Below are positions 51,191 through 62,164 of a DNA stretch of 64,000 nt, piece by piece. The stretch comes from Macrostomum lignano (taxonomy: Eukaryota), in NCBI GenBank assembly GCA_002269645.1, contig NIVC01000303.1, forward strand, positions 186,001-250,000, given 5' to 3'. The notes beneath the pieces were generated by a model, which worked only from the letters and a program-made list of their open reading frames with translations, was not told where the DNA came from and made no database searches. A program made the translations under genes and the position numbers. Every line of letters starts with the position of its first letter. Within the stretch, counting starts at the first letter, position 1.

Positions 51191-51460
51191 GAACAAGAAA
51201 GTGACAGACAAGTTAGTAAGCTTTGAGTTATATGTAAGAGTATACAAAAAGGACTTGTCCTTTGCAAGTAGGTTATTGGTTAATGTTTATGTAAGATAGG
51301 AAATGTGCCTGTATGTTTTTTTATTTTTAATACCTATTTGCCTATTATTCATAAGAAAACCTATATTTACTACTTTAAGCAGGCCTAATAGATATTGCGT
51401 ACTATTATTTCTAGACTCTAATTTAGTTTGCCTTTAAATAGAATCATATTATATTTTTTA

Positions 51461-52237
51461 TGTACTAGTGCTATGCCTTTATCATAGTATACTCGAATGT
51501 TCTTTCAATGTAATAACTGTATATTCGAATCTTTCTTAGAAACTGAATCTACGCGAACGCCAAATAATAGTTTGTTTTAATGCGCGAAATAAATTGGAGA
51601 ATTATTTTTTTTGTTTTAATCGTATGTGGGGAAAATCACTATATATAGGAGCGGTTTCGCGACAAATATACTCTAACTGTCTTTTACTCGTGAGCAAATA
51701 ATTGCGAACAGAATAAGCAGTTCAATCTAAACCATTTCAAAGTCTTTGAGCTAAATAGCGACTTATTTATTTGCAAAACCTGTGAAACGATTCTAAGAAA
51801 TTTGCTAAGAGAAGGGAATTGGGACTAATTCTTGGAGATATACCAAGAGAGGCGCCGTGACCCTCTAGTCTCGGTGAACGCCCGATTAGGACTATTCACT
51901 AATACATATATCAGTACTAGACCGCTCAGGCCATAAGCTACCAGAACGCTACCAGAAAGCAGGCCATAAGCTACCAGAACGCTACCAGAAACGCTACTAA
52001 GAACGCTACCCAGAAATATTTAAATGAAATTCTAAGAAATAGTTAGGAGTTTAGAAAGACAGAGGTGAAAGACCTGTCACAGCTGGTAGCAAATCGGTGG
52101 GATTATTTCAGTGAGAGCGCCCACCCCTACGACAACTTGGTGACATAGCGGTGGAATCCTTATAGAGAGCCAAAGGGCCTATAACAACTTGGTGTCAGCG
52201 GCTGAGATTTCTAGACAGAGCAATTAGCCCTACAACA
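51461..52237 (+). repeat. 5' LTR
   Basis: TGTACTAGTG...CCCTACAACA; direct repeat of 55700-56475. Confidence 0.96.
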
Positions 52238-52241
52238 ACTT

Positions 52242-52260
52242 TGGTGGCAGCGATAAGGAT
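52242..52260 (+). promoter_or_regulatory. Primer-binding site, tRNA-Leu type (TGGTGGCAGCG)
   Basis: 4 nt after the LTR end; 11-nt perfect complement to the recalled 3' end of metazoan tRNA-Leu(AAG/TAG), ...CGCTGCCACCA. Confidence 0.8.
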
Positions 52261-52340
52261 TAGAGAAACGGCGCGAACTCTTAAAGCTAGATTCAGAAGA
52301 ATTCCGAAGAATAATTTGAAAAGTTTTTCGTAAAGAGAAG

Positions 52341-52919
52341 ATGAATCAGAATCAGGCTAATGATGCCATCGCCATGCTGGCAGAGGAACTGCGGAAACAT
52401 CTCAAGTTAGGATCGAAAGAAGCTGAAGTGCAAGTAGAAAAGTTCACGCCTGGTCAGAACATTAGGCAGTGGATGAACACGTTTGAGCAACAGTGCAGAA
52501 TCCAAGGGATTACAGTCGAGAAACAGAAGGAAGCTCTCTTTGCTAATCTAAACATCCCAGAGGGACTGAAACGCCGAATCAGTCACAGAAAAGAGCAGAG
52601 TCAGTACCAGGAGATTAGGCGAAGGATCATCGAAGAATTTGAGCCGAAGCAGCAGAACAAGAAAGAAGGGATTGACGCATTAGTAGAGTGTCTAATGACT
52701 CTGTCAATTGTGCTAACGAACATAAGCCTAGAGCCAAAGACAGGGCAGCAGCATCAGTCAGTACCAAGACCTCGCCGCCTGAACAGATTCAGTGGAATCA
52801 GGCCAGAGCCGAAACCTGGTCACTGCTTCTTCTGCAACCAGCCAGGACCCATTAGGCCTCAGGCAGGACACCAGTGCCGAATCAACTTCAACCGGCACGC
52901 CCAGCAGAAGCCACCCTAA
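52341..52919 (+). CDS. Short Gag-like ORF (192 aa) with degenerate zinc knuckle
   Basis: First ORF after the PBS; EKF.PGQNIRQWMNTFEQQC resembles retrotransposon capsid N-termini; CFFCNQPG knuckle lacks the canonical His/Cys. Confidence 0.65.
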   Translation: MNQNQANDAIAMLAEELRKHLKLGSKEAEVQVEKFTPGQNIRQWMNTFEQQCRIQGITVEKQKEALFANLNIPEGLKRRISHRKEQSQYQEIRRRIIEEFEPKQQNKKEGIDALVECLMTLSIVLTNISLEPKTGQQHQSVPRPRRLNRFSGIRPEPKPGHCFFCNQPGPIRPQAGHQCRINFNRHAQQKPP

Positions 52920-53714
52920 GAAGACTCGTACACAGGAGCGCGAATCTGAAAGCTATTTGTAAATATGTTTCAAATATGCAAAAAAAATATAAAAACGAAT
53001 AAAAAAATTCAGAAAACCCAAAAAAATATTTGTTTAAGAAGTATTTCGTCTGCATACTGCAATGTACTGACCAAGTAAGCCGTCTAAAGTTCGTTAAATA
53101 GCTAAAAATTTAGGAGGTAACCCTTAAAAGGGCCGTTTGACCTTAAAAGGGCCGTTTTACTAAGAAACTTATTTAGGAAAGCCAGGGAACTGCAATTTCG
53201 GACTGAAAACATTGAAGGAAGATTATTTTACTCAGAGAAGTTGACGAGAAGTTGATGCTGAGAGAATTGTGCAGAATTGTGCGAAGAGAATTGTCGAAAA
53301 GATTGGATTGCAGAGATTGGCATGACGCGCGGACAGCTACGCATGCTGACCAATTGCGGATTGGCCAAAGGCAGAAAGAAGAGGCCGATGACGCTTTCAG
53401 AAGAGCCAAAAAAGGTTCAGAGAGTCAGGCCATGCAGGAAAGGAAGGGCAGTAAGGCCTAAAGAGCAGATTAATACAGAATTTCTATGATTCTACTGACG
53501 AGGCCAAACTGAGATAGCGGAAGGGGATTCGAGATTTGGGAATTTGTTAAGAGTTGTAGGACCCGTGACAGTAGAGCTGTAGCTGGCATGAGTTCAGCAG
53601 AGAAGCTTTCGAGAGGTCAGGGTCGAGTCGAGATATTGAGTCGAGAAGTTGTTGAGTTGAGATGAGATGGAATGAAGATGAGATTTCGAGGAGAAGCTGT
53701 GAGAATTTGCAAAG

Positions 53715-54188
53715 TTGTTCGAAGAGAAACATAGAAATAATCTGACTCCAGTACCGAAATCCGAAATTAATTTACCAGAGGAAATTAATAATAATTTAAA
53801 ACCAGCACCAGTGTCAACTAAGAAGAAAGAACCGCCGAAGCCGAAGAAAAGAATTTGCCATAGACAAAAAGAAGTTAGAATTCCAGAAGTTCAAATTTTA
53901 GAGGAGGAAAGCTCAGACGAAGAAAACAGAATTCAATGGAGAGTATTCGCAGATCCGAATTCGCAGAGTGAAAACGAAGGAAATGAAGAATTGAACAGTG
54001 AGAATACAGAGAGAGCGACTGACTCAGATGAGCCATCAGAAGAAGAAGAAGGAGCATTAGAGTTAGAGGAGGAACGAGTTCAGCCAGAGAATAGGTATAA
54101 CTTTAGGATGACTCAGCGAAGGAGAGAAAGAGAAGGCGCGACAGGATTTGTGCCCCGAAGGCGCTACGTGAAATATTTAGCACCTTAA
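53715..54188 (+). CDS. Acidic ORF, probably the residual post-integrase tail of pol
   Basis: E-rich with an RYNFR motif; preceded by stop-ridden LLRVVGPVTVEL (GPY/F-like) at ~53545-53580. Confidence 0.4.
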   Translation: MFEEKHRNNLTPVPKSEINLPEEINNNLKPAPVSTKKKEPPKPKKRICHRQKEVRIPEVQILEEESSDEENRIQWRVFADPNSQSENEGNEELNSENTERATDSDEPSEEEEGALELEEERVQPENRYNFRMTQRRREREGATGFVPRRRYVKYLAP

Positions 54189-54497
54189 ATCATGACGTAA
54201 GCAATTTCCCATAAGAAACAGTGTTAAATAGTTAAAATTCCGTATTAGAATTACTTATCTGCTTATAAAATTTGACATGCTGTACATAGAGCGAATCTGT
54301 AAATACCATATTAATCTACAAAATGCGATCTTTAATTTGATACTTTACTCAAGAAAATCTATCAAAAAATAAAAAAGTTATAAAAAGAAATAGAAAATCC
54401 ATAAAAATTTAGTTGTCAAATCTGTCAAATCTGGCATGCCCCGCCCCACGCGCGAGGGGAGTGCTTCGAAGAGGTCCAGTTTTTCGGCCCGCCAGCT

Positions 54498-54505
54498 TAT
54501 AAATA
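54498..54505 (+). promoter_or_regulatory. TATA box upstream of ORF3 of the LTR element
   Basis: CTTATAAATA ~90 nt before ATG 54589, in a GC-rich island. Confidence 0.5.
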
Positions 54506-54588
54506 CGAGCACCCTGCAGGCCCCACAGATCCCATAGCTCACTGCTAGCTTCCTTTCTATTCTAAGAGCCATTCGCAGAGAAATCAAA

Positions 54589-55416
54589 ATGAACAACTCT
54601 ATTGATATCTTGGACGAGTTAATTGGCAATCTGTCAGACGATATGGAGCCCCAGCCAGCGCCCAACACCGACGAAAATGAGGCACCGCTTCGATGTGCAA
54701 CACGTCCAAAGGCGCCTGGTGTATCCAGCAAACGGCCAAGAACATCATCGCCAGCTTCATCGCCTTGCCGCCAAATGAGGGTCGAAGGCCCCGAGCAGAA
54801 GCGCGCCGCCCTGGTGGCAGCACAGGCAGCTGCGCCCGTGCGCTCCTATGTTGTCAAGGCCACGCCAGGATCGTCGACATCAAGCCGAACGCAGCAGTTG
54901 GTGTCACCGCCAGCTGCCCCATCATCGAGAAAGACCCCGGCACCACGGCAGAAGAAATCGACAGCTGCGACACCGCCAGCTCAGCAGCCAGCGTCGCAGC
55001 CGAGCCTGCAATCAGCGCAGCAGTCAGCACTACAGCCGAGCCAGCAGCAATCGAATTCGCAGAGAGATTTTCATCGCATCGTCCGAGAACTTGTGGAGAC
55101 TCGCGGAGCAGAGGTGGAAAAGCTACGCTTCCACATTGAGCAATACGCACTGAAAGTAGCGTACCACCGATCCGACAGCCGACAGCGCTACCCCCAATGC
55201 TCGCAAATTTGGACACATCTGAAGTTTCTGAGGGATCAATTCAGTTACCAGGAAGCTGTCGCTGTTCTCCAGGACGTCGCCTATCGCCTCCAGCGAGCTA
55301 TAAGAGCCAACCCGCCGCCAGCGCTGACGGTCCTCGACGAAGAGTACCGATGGTTTTTCGCTCAAGTCGGCTGGCCCTACTATCGCGACCTCCCGGAGCC
55401 CTGCATGTTTATCTGA
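54589..55416 (+). CDS. Element-borne ORF3, 275 aa, unknown function (disordered P/S/Q/basic N-terminal half plus ~120-aa predicted helical domain)
   Basis: Intact ATG-to-TGA ORF with coding-like composition between AT-rich spacers; no signal peptide or TM segment evident. Confidence 0.7.
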   Translation: MNNSIDILDELIGNLSDDMEPQPAPNTDENEAPLRCATRPKAPGVSSKRPRTSSPASSPCRQMRVEGPEQKRAALVAAQAAAPVRSYVVKATPGSSTSSRTQQLVSPPAAPSSRKTPAPRQKKSTAATPPAQQPASQPSLQSAQQSALQPSQQQSNSQRDFHRIVRELVETRGAEVEKLRFHIEQYALKVAYHRSDSRQRYPQCSQIWTHLKFLRDQFSYQEAVAVLQDVAYRLQRAIRANPPPALTVLDEEYRWFFAQVGWPYYRDLPEPCMFI

Positions 55417-55689
55417 ACTATTGAGGTGAACTAACTTTTGCGTTGCCTTTAATAACAATTTTGCCTTTTATAATACTTTTATAATAGTTCGTTTTGCTTC
55501 CATAATAGTTCTCACTTTAATGGTTTACCTACATAATAGTTCTATCACAACCATTTTATGCACCAATTGTTTTAGCACTGAATTGTGTTTTCTGCACCTT
55601 GCTTTGCACCTTTTCACCTGCATTTTCCTACGATATCAATTTTTCACTGTATACATATAATATAGTATTTCGTTCAAAATTTGATATAT

Positions 55690-55698
55690 AGAGGAAAG
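55690..55698 (+). promoter_or_regulatory. Polypurine tract AGAGGAAAG
   Basis: 1 nt before the 3' LTR. Confidence 0.7.
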
Positions 55699-55699
55699 T

Positions 55700-56475
55700 T
55701 GTACTAGTGCTATGCCTTTATCATAGTATACTCGAATGTTCTTTCAATGTAATAACTGTATATTCGAATCTTTCTTAGAAACTGAATCTACGCGAACGCC
55801 AAATAATAGTTTGTTTTAATGCGCGAAATAAATTGGAGAATTATTTTTTTGTTTTAATCGTATGTGGGGAAAATCACTATATATAGGAGCGGTTTCGCGA
55901 CAAATATACTCTAACTGTCTTTTACTCGTGAGCAAATAATTGCGAACAGAATAAGCAGTTCAATCTAAACCATTTCAAAGTCTTTGAGCTAAATAGCGAC
56001 TTATTTATTTGCAAAACCTGTGAAACGATTCTAAGAAATTTGCTAAGAGAAGGGAATTGGGACTAATTCTTGGAGATATACCAAGAGAGGCGCCGTGACC
56101 CTCTAGTCTCGGTGAACGCCCGATTAGGACTATTCACTAATACATATATCAGTACTAGACCGCTCAGGCCATAAGCTACCAGAACGCTACCAGAAAGCAG
56201 GCCATAAGCTACCAGAACGCTACCAGAAACGCTACTAAGAACGCTACCCAGAAATATTTAAATGAAATTCTAAGAAATAGTTAGGAGTTTAGAAAGACAG
56301 AGGTGAAAGACCTGTCACAGCTGGTAGCAAATCGGTGGGATTATTTCAGTGAGAGCGCCCACCCCTACGACAACTTGGTGACATAGCGGTGGAATCCTTA
56401 TAGAGAGCCAAAGGGCCTATAACAACTTGGTGTCAGCGGCTGAGATTTCTAGACAGAGCAATTAGCCCTACAACA
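55700..56475 (+). repeat. 3' LTR
   Basis: Direct repeat of 51461-52237, followed by the TTTA TSD. Confidence 0.96.
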
Positions 56476-58399
56476 TTTATATCTTTTTTATATGGTTACA
56501 TTATATTACCATAGGCATAGCTATATATATTCAAGATTCAAATTTTTTGATTCTTATACTTTGGGTTTTACTTCAAGTTAGTAGAATCTGTAGTTCATTC
56601 TGCAATTTATCATTCCTTTATAGATTCTGAATTTAACTGTGTTATTCTATTTAAATTCTACAATTTACTAGGTAGGCCCTTATTTCTAAACCTAGAAATA
56701 GGCTGTGTCATGCAACTATAGTTTGTAGAAGCACAATAAATCATATTTAAGTTATACAAATTTTAGTACTTTAAAAATTTAATAAGAATTTTTATCTAGT
56801 TTAAAGTTGCAAATATGTTGTTTAACTTTTTTGCAAGTATATTATAAATATATAAAGGATAACAGCTTTATTGAAGGAAACATTTGTATTTTTTATTTAT
56901 ATGTTTGTATTGATGCTAGAGGAGGCCTAAGCTAGAGTCTAGTAGATCCTAGACTCATTGTTAGTATAACCCACACTATACTAATGCATTTGCTTAGCTT
57001 AGCCTATGTGTACAAATGCAGCCTCTGAAATTAGACCTGAAATCTGAACTTGCTACCTAATACCATAGTAGCCAAAGCTTAATTTTGACTGAGAGTATAT
57101 TTTTTGTTTTATGACTTACCTAGGGCTAATCTGATTCTTTGTATAACTTTTTTTATAACTTGTTTTTTGGCTATCAATTTTGCAATTTATCTTTGCCTTG
57201 GTTTGCCACAATTTATATTCATATGCTAGAAGTGATTAGGTTACTTAGAAATTATAAATGTATCAAGGTATACAGAATTTAATCAATTTATATAGCTTAT
57301 TACAAAGAGAAACAATAAATAAATTTATATTTTTTTATTTTCAAACCAATTAAAATCTAAAAAATAGCTGGATCATTTAGCTAGCTTCTTCCCAAATAAA
57401 TTTTGCTAGCCTTTTTTGTTAAACAAGGCCTAAAAATATAAAACCTAATATATGTATAACCTTTTAAAATTACATTATTTAATTTTATCAATTTGCAATT
57501 TTTTTCATAAACTAAATTGGTAAGCAGTTATGCATTTCCATGTATAAACCTAAAATAGATACCCTAATTGTAATTTTTTTTCATAAAATAGGGCAGTGTT
57601 TGAAAATCTGTATTTTTATATCAATATAAGTATCTATCAATAGATGTCTTTTTGGTATTTTAAATTTAGGTGTAGAACAAGTTGGTACTAGACACTTCAT
57701 TTGTATTTTAGGATAAGCTTAGCTTTAATTATAGCCTTTGGATATATTAGTAGACCTAGCATTAAAACAAAGGCATTTCTTAATTTAAGCATAAATTATG
57801 TTAAATTCCTCCTTAATTAATTATTTAGCACCATTGATTTATTATCAATGGTCTATACCATGGGCTATATATAGACTGCAAAGCCTCTTTATATAGCCCC
57901 TGGATCTTTTGATGCTTTATAATAATAATATAGCTTGCTCAGTGTGTGTAAATCTTCTCCCTTAAATTATTTTTTTTCTTTTTTTTCTTATCTCTTATCT
58001 TGCATCACTTCTCTCACTTTTTTCCCTCTTCTCTCTTTTCTGTTCTATTTTCCTACTCTCTCTTCCTCCTTTCTCCTCCTCTTGTTCTCTTTTCCTCCCT
58101 CCACTTATCTCTTCTCTTTCCTTCATTTTTCTCTTCGACCCACAGTCATGCATTTGATTTTTTATCTGGCCTTTTTAGTTAAAAAAAGTTTGCCAGTCTC
58201 TGCTTTAAAGTGAATTTCATTTTTTTGGTTGTATTCATTCATTTATTTCTGTTGTTCTACACCCTGCCAATGAAATCAAGGGCTCCAATGGCCTTTCAAG
58301 TATTTTAAGTCTTAGTCTTAGTTATTGAATAGCCAATATCAGTAAATGAGATAGCACTTGGTGAATCCGTCAATCTGCCTAATGTATCAATTTGCAGCA

Positions 58400-58951
58400 A
58401 TGGCCACTCTGCGTGTCTGCCAACCAATGTTGGTAACTAGGCTGTTGCTAGGCGGATCTCGCCGCCTATGCAGCCAATCTACTAACGAAATCCGCATGGT
58501 AGCCAAACGCGAAATGGAGCACTTCTGGGAGAAGAATCGCAAGCTGAAACGCCCATGGAGTCCGCATCTCACTATCTATGGCAATAGCATCACCATGATA
58601 ACCTCGCTAATTCATCGCGTGTCTGGCATAGCCATGGGCCTGGCCTGGCCAGTGCTGGGCGTTGCCGGTTTCTATGCAGCCGGCAACTGGTCCAGAGTGG
58701 TAGACTGGGCCCGGGGCAGCCAGCTGGGATATCCAGTTGTGTTCGGGGTTAAATCCGTTGTCTGCTTCCTGCCAGTGTACCACATGATCAACGGCATCAG
58801 GCATCTGTGCTACGATCTTGGCTACGGATTTGATCTGGCTGTTACTAAACAGACTGGAGTGGTTGTCATCGCATTGGCCGTTGCCTGTACTCTGCTGCTG
58901 GCTTCGGTCAGACTGGCTCCTCAACCGGCTGCTTCGAAGAAACAAAGATAA
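58400..58951 (+). CDS. SDHC: Succinate dehydrogenase cytochrome b560 subunit
   Basis: Presequence-like N-terminus; FWEKNRKLKRPWSPHLTIY, SLIHRVSG, HMINGIRHL (heme His), three TM helices; intronless; TTTGCAG acceptor 3 nt before the ATG. Confidence 0.95.
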   Translation: MATLRVCQPMLVTRLLLGGSRRLCSQSTNEIRMVAKREMEHFWEKNRKLKRPWSPHLTIYGNSITMITSLIHRVSGIAMGLAWPVLGVAGFYAAGNWSRVVDWARGSQLGYPVVFGVKSVVCFLPVYHMINGIRHLCYDLGYGFDLAVTKQTGVVVIALAVACTLLLASVRLAPQPAASKKQR

Positions 58952-59494
58952 ACATAATATTCTGCAGTCGACTTTTACATTAAAAATACACTTTTTGGAT
59001 TGCTTTAAGTCGCCCTTTCAGCTTACAAATTTGTGACCTTAGTTGTGTTTAGATAATAAAATAATAGTACATTAGTGTACAAGTATAAAAGTCCCCGAAA
59101 CATGAGAAAAATTAACTAAACTACTTATCCACTTTTTCTGCAGTCGATGTGAAATATATTACTTAGTAAGTAGTAGCTCCCCGCAAGTATAACAGTTCTC
59201 CTTTTCCTAAGAACACCGCGTAATGTAGATTGACGGTAGATGTAATGTAATAAACTTAGCAATTAAGTTATAAAATACAATAAATCATTATAATGTTAAT
59301 CTCGACTCCAAGTTCGAGAGAAACTATTATTGGATAGAAGTTCTGGTTTTTTTAGCTGGCCTCTGGTTGCTTAGTAATTCAGTCTGTATTGTTTCTTGAC
59401 TTGTTTATCTTGATGACTTGTTGACTTGACTTATTGAAACAATCTGGACTTGTTTATTTTGTTAATCTTGTGTTTTGAACCTCATTTCTACTAT

Positions 59495-61525
59495 TCTCCA
59501 TTGAGAATCGTCCCTATTCTCTATTCAGAATCTCTCCATTCTCCATCCAGAATCTCCCCATTCTCTATTCAGAATCTCTCCATTCTCCAACCAGAATCTC
59601 CCTATTCTCCATCCAGAATCTCCCAATTCTCCATCCAGAATCTCCCTATTCTCTATTCAGAATCTCTCCATTCTCTATCCAGAATCTCCCCATTCTCCAT
59701 CCAGAATCTCCCCATTCTCCATCCAGAATCTTCCCATTCTCCATCCAGAAACTCCCATTCTCCATCCAGAAACTCCCCATTCTCCATCCAGAATCTCCCC
59801 ATTCTCCATCCAAAATCTTCCCATTCTCCATCCAGAAACTCCCATTCTCCATCCAGAATCTCCCCATTCTCCATCCAGAATCTCCCCATTCTCCATCCAG
59901 AATCTCCCCATTCTCCATCCAAAATCTTCCCATTCTCCATCCAGAATCTCCCAATTCTCCATCCAGAATCTCCCCATTCTCCATCCAGAATCTCCTCATT
60001 CTCCATCCAAAATCTTCCCATTCTCCATCCAGAATCTCCCCATTCTCCATCCAGAATCTCCCCATTCTCCATCCAGAAACTCCCCATTCTCCATCCAGAA
60101 TCTCCCCATTCTCCATCCAGAATCTCCCCATTCTCCATCCAAAATCTTCCCATTCTCCATCCAGAAACTCCCATTTTCCATCCAGAATCTCCCCATTCTC
60201 CATCCAGAATCTCCCCATTCTCCATCCAGAATCTCCCCATTCTCCATCCAAAATCTTCCCATTCTCCATCCAGAAACTCCCATTCTCCATCCAGAATCTC
60301 CCCATTCTCCATCCAGAATCTCCCCATTCTCCATCCAGAATCTCCCCATTCTCCATCCAAAATCTTCCCATTCTCCATCCAGAATCTCCCAATTCTCCAT
60401 CCAGAATCTCCCCATTCTCCATCCAGAATCTCCTCATTCTCCATCCAAAATCTTCCCATTCTCCATCCAGAATCTCCCCATTCTCCATCCAGAATCTCCC
60501 CATTCTCCATCCAAAATCTTCCCATTCTCCATCCAGAAACTCCCATTTTCCATCCAGAATCTCCCCATTCTCCATCCAGAATCTCCCCATTCTCCATCCA
60601 GAATCTCCCCATTCTCCATCCAAAATCTTCCCATTCTCCATCCAGAAACTCCCATTTTCCATCCAGAATCTCCCCATTCTCCATCCAGAATCTCCCCATT
60701 CTCCATCCAGAATCTCCCCATTCTCCATCCAAAATCTTCCCATTCTCCATCCAGAAACTCCCATTCTCCATCCGGAATCTCCCCATTCTCCATCCAGAAT
60801 CTCCCCATTCTCCATCCAGAATCTCCCCATTCTCCATCCAGAATCTCCCCATTCTCCATCCAGAATCTCCCCATTCTCCATCCAGAATCTCCCCATTCTC
60901 CATCCAGAATCTCCCCATTCTCCATCCAGAATCTCCCCATTCTCCATCCAGAATCTCCCTATTCTCCATCCAGAATCTCCCCATTCTCCATCCAGAATCT
61001 CCCCATTCTCCATCCAGAATCTCCCCATTCTCCATCCAGAATCTCCCCATTCTCCATCCAGAATCTCCCCATTCTCCATCCAGAATCTCCCCATTCTCCA
61101 TCCAGAATCTCCCCATTCTCCATCCAGAATCTCCCCATTCTCCATCCAGAATCTCCCCATTCTCCATCCAAAATCTTCCCATTCTCCATCCAGAATCTCC
61201 CCATTCTCCATCCAGAATCTCCCCATTCTCCATCCAGAATCTCCCCATTCTCCATCCAGAATCTCCCCATTCTCCATCCAGAATCTCCCCATTCTCCATC
61301 CAGAATCTCCCCATTCTCCATCCAGAATCTCCCCATTCTCCATCCAGAATCTCCCCATTCTCCATCCAGAATCTCCCCATTCTCCATCCAAAATCTTCCC
61401 ATTCTCCATCCAGAATCTCCCCATTCTCCATCCAGAATCTCCCCATTCTCCATCCAGAATCTCCCCATTCTCCATCCAGAATCTCCCCATTCTCCATCCA
61501 GAATCTCCCCATTCTCCATCCAAAA
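59495..61525. repeat. Minisatellite, 22 bp CCATTCTCCATCCAGAATCTCC
   Basis: About 90 units; 22-aa period in translations. Confidence 0.98.
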
Positions 61526-62164
61526 TATTCCACTAGCTTTAGAATAACTACTACTACCACTAGCTTAAAGAAAAGAGATTGTGAAACATGAAGCCATTCA
61601 GTTTTCGTTTCTTTATGTAAAACGTTTTGGAATTCTTTTTCTGAAATTCTTTACTTAGCTTTACTTAAATGGAAATAGTGATTTCAAAATGTATATATAC
61701 GAGTACAATGTTCCTGAATCAGCAATAAGAAGTTTAAAAAGTTGATATAGTTAATAAATATCAGTGTTTATTTAACAGTAACATGCAGTATAAAAACATG
61801 TTTTAGCGGAGCATGCAACAAATTTAATTTAATAACATGTCACTTCTACATATCAATATGTTGTCGGATAGTGTTTGCTTTAAAAATCCAGCAAGGAAGA
61901 CTTACCGCGACTACAGTAATGTTACAGTGTATTACCAGTGTAACACGCAATGTTCGAATGTTATTGTGAGAAAGAAAAGAGCTAAAGTGTGCTCTTCTCG
62001 TCATGGTTCTACGTGCTCGAATAATTTTTACACGACGTACGTATAATTACATGATATATAGTAAGAAAAGCACGTGATTCCGTTGTCCATGACTCAGCTT
62101 AGTTTTGTCTATGATTCAACCCCCATACACTTTTCTAGCTGACACAGGCCTAATAAAGCTGAAC

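Follow-up and report, generated by a model that had tools for sequence, protein, structure and literature searches.

A conserved accessory gene, unlike env, downstream of pol in Ty3/Gypsy elements of the flatworm Macrostomum lignano

What is an open frame of 275 codons doing in the env position of a retroelement, if it does not look like env? The question is raised by a stretch of Macrostomum lignano DNA (64,000 nucleotides, positions 186,001 to 250,000 of contig NIVC01000303.1; ‘the window’ hereafter). LTR retrotransposons of animals are generally regarded as ‘simple’ for the most part, and only a handful (CERV) are known to have regulatory accessory proteins of the sort found in complex retroviruses. 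The initial annotation of the window had placed a TATA box, TATAAATA, at 54498 and an ATG at 54589 followed by 275 open codons within a GC-rich island, and all of this holds. The island has 56.5% GC against 26–44% in the adjoining bins, and none of 2000 shuffles reached a frame of 275 codons or more (median 118).

The frame, called ORF3 here, is housed in a 5.0-kb LTR element at 51461-56475 (Table 1). LTRs of the TG...CA form, TSD, PBS and PPT were all found in the window copy, as befits a Ty3/Gypsy LTR retrotransposon. The 5′ LTR has a TATA of its own at about 51640, and its U3 is AT-rich and lacks the motif of the ORF3 promoter. The window ORF3 has a linker 16 aa shorter, in frame, than that of most close copies.

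Table 1 Features of the window copy (positions within the window)
Feature	Positions	Strand	Remark
TSD, 4-bp	51457..51460		second copy at 56476-56479
5′ LTR (TG...CA)	51461..52237	+	99.87% identity to 3′ LTR
Array of about 52-bp units, each LTR-end-like with PBS-like TGGT	52084..52260	+	
Short Gag-derived ORF, 192 aa	52341..52919	+	39% identity to full-form Gag N-terminus
Stop-rich spacer, typical of short form	52920..53729		no pol similarity detectable
Pol tail, open	53730..54188	+	residues 1365-1516 of full form, 97% identical
Promoter-proximal motif core GGTCCAGTTTTTC, conserved	54473..54485	+	
TATA box of predicted internal promoter	54498..54505	+	
ORF3, 275 aa	54589..55416	+	stop codon at 55414-55416
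Acidic amphipathic N-terminal motif	54589..54648	+	hydrophobic-x-x-hydrophobic-hydrophobic; 6-9 D/E in first 22 aa
Basic middle, conserved	54679..54888	+	APLRxxTRP, two KR clusters (predicted NLS), short helix 69-80
Five-helix C-terminal domain	55045..55413	+	pLDDT 81-96 (full-length model)
Polypurine tract	55686..55699	+	
3′ LTR	55700..56475	+	

ORF3 had been taken as conspicuously intact beside a pol remnant riddled with stops. By tblastn at E up to 1, the stretch with the stops (52920-53728, 12–18 per frame) has no pol similarity, and the real pol tail, which is open, has 97% identity to a full element. The argument fails on two counts: the stretch in question is not pol, and the whole 3′ half, which begins at the pol tail (53730), is shared with a helper; ORF3 is intact in the window copy largely because of this recent sharing. 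The window copy is a recombinant short element, with a 3′ half about 98% identical to a current full element.

Incidentally, PBS-like TGGT units lie at 52084, 52138 and 52190, within U5, in addition to the PBS in use at 52242. Up to six tandem units of LTR end plus PBS-like sequence occur in the U5/leader of the window (52084-52260) and of four other loci (L044, L047, L056 and L058). The units differ in their tRNA-like ends, so that LTR length depends on the PBS used; a literature search found no paper on them. Elsewhere in the window, positions 1-43000 and 59380-61600 are dense minisatellite arrays with periods of 8–34 bp, the long frames at 59438-61650 being repeat artefacts, and an intronless ORF at 58355-58951 seems, by its motifs, to resemble the succinate dehydrogenase cytochrome b subunit.

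How widespread is ORF3? The species’ own genome gave at least 180 matches (pieces, hence a lower bound), and the homologues named at NCBI are hypothetical proteins of M. lignano. ‘Orphan’, as ORF3 had been called, is therefore apt outside the genus and wrong within this genome. Among 98 loci examined, the window included, 41 are full elements of 8–9 kb, 35 are short ones of 5 kb and 22 are unclear. ORF3 lies between pol and the 3′ LTR in both forms, on the sense strand, and follows pol in every locus with a placeable pol, out to elements with Gag only about 60% identical. Full-form elements L041, L043 and L047 carry a gag with a zinc knuckle and a pol of the order PR-RT-RH-IN, which places them in Ty3/Gypsy; assignment to a clade (Mag, CsRN1, Osvaldo and Mdg3 were tried) gave no resolution. 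Many insertions are young, with LTRs 99–100% identical.

Some loci depart from these forms. L040 is a chimera of a full gag and part of pol joined to the short-form spacer, and L042 is a short element with an insertion bearing a 733-aa frame. Beside pol in a distant Gypsy clade (L228, L232 and L235) stands an ORF3 that has a J-domain, an acidic linker and a helical C-terminal part unlike the present one. The literature search found no paper that names these Mlig genes or describes this ORF3; its reach did not extend to an earlier M. lignano classification paper (cited in PMC12801592) or the main supplement of PMC5730564, either of which might mention ORF3. PMC12801592 classifies M. lignano LTR families and, in the parts covered, mentions no such ORF.

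ORF3 is under purifying selection. In the C-terminal domain (C-domain), dN/dS is below 1 in all 72 measurable pairs (median 0.32), where measurable means dS between 0.1 and 2; this holds for 72 of 231 pairs, most of the others being saturated and a few nearly identical. Between the window and the L032 ORF3, pS is 0.77 and pN 0.11. The 32 close copies, which were not randomly chosen, differ by 55 synonymous and 37 non-synonymous substitutions and a single change to a stop. On the other hand, 16 of the 32 have frameshifts, and the rate in ORF3 is 0.57–1.06 per kb in this non-random sample, compared with 0.79 in pol and 0–0.14 in gag. Six frameshifted copies share one site in a homopolymer run on differing SNP backgrounds, and L033 and L138 represent a single insertion, one of them having the homopolymer frameshift and the other lacking it. 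This suggests that assembly error or slippage accounts for some of the frameshifts.

Nor is ORF3 env-like. The best 19-residue hydropathy window of the window protein is 1.02 and there is no R-x-K/R-R site in it; in all 23 ORF3 proteins, the best window is 1.11 or lower and the N-terminus is acidic, leaving no env-type TM segment. The view of ORF3 as a retained, non-env accessory gene is borne out, and ORF3 is almost certainly functional as such. As to its function, we tentatively favor the reading that ORF3, likely transcribed from its own internal promoter, would encode a protein that is likely nuclear and transactivates the LTR, similar to foamy virus Tas in its role but without evident kinship to it. 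The frameshifts described above, more frequent than in gag, count against this reading.

The protein itself has a layout that would fit a transactivator: an acidic motif, a disordered linker, basic clusters and a folded domain. The acidic N-terminal motif is present in 16 of 18 aligned rows, the two others being one (L047) that starts a few residues late in the alignment and one without an N-terminus. The basic clusters noticed at first sight are conserved across the aligned ORF3 proteins, two KR clusters being found in 16 of the 18 rows, and APLRxxTRP is invariant. Linkers of freely varying length separate the conserved parts. Helical character had been suggested for the C-terminal part, and residues 153-275 are indeed predicted to be helical, the N-terminal half being predicted disordered; AlphaFold gives the C-domain as a confident all-helical model with five helices and no strands (mean pLDDT 85, pTM 0.81), and in the full-length model the first half is disordered.

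Relatives of this domain were sought widely. A search with the single protein gave no distant relative at E 0.001, and nothing reached E 0.001 when the C-domain alignment was compared with longer proteins. A profile search of 1.84 billion proteins gave seven matches, namely four from M. lignano, one from Logan and two weak ones to repeat proteins, P0006 and P0007 (pyrin-repeat protein), which were set aside as multi-stretch accumulations. The Logan protein, with only 38–46% identity to its best genome matches, represents an ORF3 type absent from this assembly. Pfam gave ORF3 proteins only sub-cutoff matches, PDB sequences nothing below E 0.15, the ESM Atlas nothing usable, and Foldseek no match at E 0.001 against PDB and BFVD. 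The suggestion of a captured host or viral gene found no backing, as no source gene turned up in the sequence, Pfam, PDB and Foldseek searches. PF04195 was matched by none of 22 members. A J-domain identity was rejected (HPD in 0 of 24, hhalign probability 0.05%, negative HMM scores). No match to Tas appeared in the searches of Pfam, PDB or BFVD. Neither Foldseek nor VIA recognized a known DNA-binding fold in the C-domain, and its charge is nearly neutral (17 basic, 15 acidic residues), both of which speak against a transactivator.

The best structural neighbor in VIA is the C-terminal domain (CTD) of Gle1, an mRNA-export factor (Z 8.2, rmsd 3.3, 118 aligned), with further rows of the MIF4G/MA3 type lower in the list. 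This neighbor suggests another role, that of a Rev- or CERV-like factor that exports or stabilizes genomic RNA. The leucine-rich N-terminal motif matches an NES pattern in 8 of the 18 rows, and CERV provides an example of a nuclear export factor in an LTR retrotransposon, as far as the covered parts of PMC10309623 describe it. However, Z 8.2 is at the noise level for helical bundles, so the Gle1 likeness was set aside, the NES pattern is missing from 10 of the 18 rows, and the G-protein-like domain of CERV is absent from the model. An LTR block of about 35 nt (window about 51856-51895) is conserved in 14 of 15 types, and no strong shared RNA structure was found around it (consensus −1.69 kcal/mol, three pairs), nor is there any listed splicing that would need a Rev. 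An export factor is unlikely, if still worth keeping in mind.

A transactivator gene with a promoter of its own should show promoter-like DNA upstream. A non-coding motif ahead of the TATA box is better conserved than the TATA box itself, its core occurring in 70 of 81 inner-clade loci. Behind the motif, a TATA-like box follows after 5–6 nt (16 loci) or 12–15 nt (54 loci), the TATA-like variants having been picked after the sequences were inspected. Type L044 has a stretch of 30 bp that matches a host histone H1 promoter exactly, and in the outer clade three of four starts examined have CCAAT and TATA in place of the motif. The predicted ORF3 promoter is thus supported by conservation, and we think it probably active.

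Contigs from what are probably RNA runs extend over the element, and in three out of four runs the bins of non-coding host sequence close by are empty; the region containing ORF3 thus appears to be transcribed. Of the promoter claim, the promoter-like DNA stands as conserved; a separate transcript is not shown, as the contigs cross the TATA box without a break, a point against the transactivator. Among the joints listed for eight runs, there is no splice, leader joint or loose end into ORF3, in contigs that drop rare forms, and this favors a promoter-driven transactivator gene. Cis- and trans-splicing onto ORF3 were set aside, with none listed and no holder of ORF3 on record as RNA. A contig start at 54539 (run X2) is an assembly-bubble overlap rather than a start site, and no TAR-like hairpin after the LTR TATA was convincing (z-scores −2.1 to +1.7).

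The motif is not confined to these elements. It also lies ahead of a histone H1 gene (L079:6700-7600, L082) and ahead of an orphan ORF beside a tyrosine recombinase that has a weak DUF3504 match and is presumably Crypton-like (L081:4102-7725). In its 21-bp form, it has 403 exact matches in the genome, compared with none for the reversed control, and is the common core of minisatellites of many periods (about 29–50 bp; L071-L078, L086, L178-L197), which weakens the case for a transactivator. An snRNA-type promoter element was rejected (motif in 0 of 8 U2 loci), and so were terminal repeats of giant transposons, since the loci with inverted motif arrays look like minisatellites within duplicated host sequence.

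The motif also marks an exchange boundary. Full elements with near-identical RT (pS 0.02–0.05) bear ORF3s with saturated synonymous sites (pS 0.61–0.79, pN 0.17–0.41). Similarity is lost directly behind the motif, 50–120 nt ahead of the ATG, and is largely regained only in R/U5. Typing of 58 of the 98 loci gave 13 ORF3 types, 17 U3 types and 6 upstream types, and four of the six upstream types carry two to four ORF3 types. Further down, the branching of ORF3 broadly matches that of RT. ORF3s of at least 13 ancient types move, mostly with U3, between near-identical gag-pol backbones, the exchanged block starting just after the promoter motif and usually including U3.

If ORF3 acts on the U3 next to it, the two should travel together, and they do in that 16 of the 17 U3 types have one ORF3 type each and 9 of the 13 ORF3 types one U3 type each. 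On the other hand, co-travel of neighbors can be expected from physical linkage alone, and the lock is leaky, as 4 of the 13 ORF3 types occur with two or more U3 types and L147 has the ORF3 of one type on the U3 of another. These facts suit a different account, in which ORF3 has one fixed helper role (e.g. in the particle or in integration), its diversity hitch-hikes on a fast-evolving U3, and short elements keep ORF3 only by taking over the helper’s 3′ half. A single crossover at the conserved motif is enough to carry both ORF3 and U3 across, discordant pairs exist, and six ORF3 types occur on both short and full forms with C-domains identical or near-identical. This account leaves the own promoter and the activator-like layout unexplained, and within a backbone group neither the Gag nor the integrase types run parallel to those of ORF3; we hold it to be quite improbable.

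The persistence of ancient, divergent types on near-identical backbones could also reflect an arms race, with ORF3 suppressing host silencing (piRNA or chromatin) independently of sequence. A disordered chain that bears short linear motifs is well suited to interference between proteins, and a truncated stand-alone copy (see below) may be a host counter-measure. However, there is no non-synonymous excess, with every measurable pairwise C-domain dN/dS below 1, a general suppressor need not travel with U3, and Pfam and fold searches gave no likeness to known suppressors. A silencing suppressor is rather unlikely.

The Gag of the short form has pS 0.20 and pN 0.01 between the window and L032, and zero frameshifts in 7.9 kb. 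The short form is not a simple deletion; it is a separate old satellite lineage, with its own short Gag under purifying selection and with helper ORF3 types. In the window and in 35 short loci, the short Gag ends in a conserved Cys/His motif of unusual spacing.

Truncated Gag can act as a dominant negative (Ty1 p22), and a truncated Gag kept under selection in the short form is possibly of this type. Together with the swapping of many old types as cassettes, this suggests a factor of interference or immunity, one that would hold down rival or cognate elements for copy-number control, like phage immunity cassettes. Acidic amphipathic motifs suit activation better than repression, and ORF3 has one at its N-terminus; moreover, the young insertions are numerous. 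We regard such a factor as the least probable of the roles considered.

The C-domain is also found alone. P0004 (Mlig026206) consists of the C-domain only, at three loci (L108:6313-7400, L109 and L098), with no LTR, gag or pol nearby. Even so, it keeps the motif and the TATA box, whose conservation extending to an LTR-less copy favors the transactivator. Its three copies differ at four synonymous and two conservative positions. Mlig gene models derive from a genome-guided transcriptome, according to the parts of PMC5730564 covered, so Mlig026206 is probably transcribed. P0004 is possibly a case of domestication.

How would a transactivator work here? A host factor would bind the motif, which is common to the histone H1 promoter, and fire the internal promoter, with the AT-rich LTR weak in the meantime. 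Through its basic middle, the ORF3 protein would enter the nucleus, where the folded C-domain, perhaps with the basic middle, may dock on U3 or on a U3-bound factor and the acidic N-terminal motif would recruit co-activators. Short satellites that keep a helper’s ORF3-U3 block could then be switched on with that helper and copied by it.

A bolder and improbable version makes ORF3 and U3 a lock-and-key activation cassette. Frequency-dependent selection would maintain a dozen or more ancient types, which would be shuffled in the manner of phage immunity regions between helpers and an old short-Gag satellite lineage, with the host-domesticated, C-domain-only copy as a dominant-negative brake. Whatever its role, ORF3 has a new folded domain that is clearly under selection, and its function can be tested directly because the flatworm is a model animal open to transgenesis and RNAi; old accessory types on young backbones, a protein-coding satellite and a truncated LTR-less copy make a natural system for helper, satellite and host conflict.

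Among known systems, TR-GAG and Dasheng are Gag-only or chimeric non-autonomous LTR elements. The short elements resemble them in lacking RT and having LTRs in common with a helper, and differ in that the short Gag evolves separately under purifying selection and the helper’s accessory gene is also carried. Accessory genes in the same position are known from plants. In the parts of PMC11963269 and PMC7264820 covered, Grande gene23 and Retand TRP28 are conserved, non-env genes between pol and the 3′ LTR of Ty3/Gypsy elements, with their own promoter, nuclear products and a proposed regulatory role. They are antisense, plant-specific and of PF04195, whereas ORF3 is sense, animal, without Pfam match and of many types swapped with U3.

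The precedent for the proposed transactivator is foamy virus, where an internal promoter drives Tas and Tas binds both the LTR and the internal promoter, as outlined in parts of PMC12282171. Comparable in ORF3 are a predicted second promoter near the 3′ end and predicted modules of activation type, NLS type and folded type. The module order of ORF3 is reversed, with the acidic motif N-terminal, the carrier is a retrotransposon without env, and no kinship in sequence or fold was found. In Oikopleura Tor3b/4b, animal Ty3/Gypsy elements, env is expressed from an internal promoter between pol and ORF3 and not by splicing, according to the covered parts of PMC4402516; the predicted promoter here has the same place. 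The Tor ORF3 is a membrane glycoprotein, whereas the flatworm ORF3 has no TM segment or signal peptide by hydropathy.

CERV of C. elegans Cer1 is likewise an orphan, fast-diverging accessory protein with structured domains on flexible linkers and candidate NLS/NES. As parts of PMC10309623 describe, its mRNA is spliced and overlaps gag, and the protein consists of H, M and G (GTPase-like) domains; ORF3 has no listed splice joint, lies downstream of pol and matches none of these. LTR elements of bdelloid rotifers also carry non-env cargo in the env position, in the portions of PMC5408684 covered. Their GDSL and DEDDy cargoes and the DnaJ ORF3s of the present genome are captured known domains, whereas this C-domain is an orphan. 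Thus, own-promoter accessory genes in this position, non-env ORF3s and CERV are already known, and what appears to be undescribed is the domain, its exchange as a cassette of many types, the satellite with a short Gag and the stand-alone copy.
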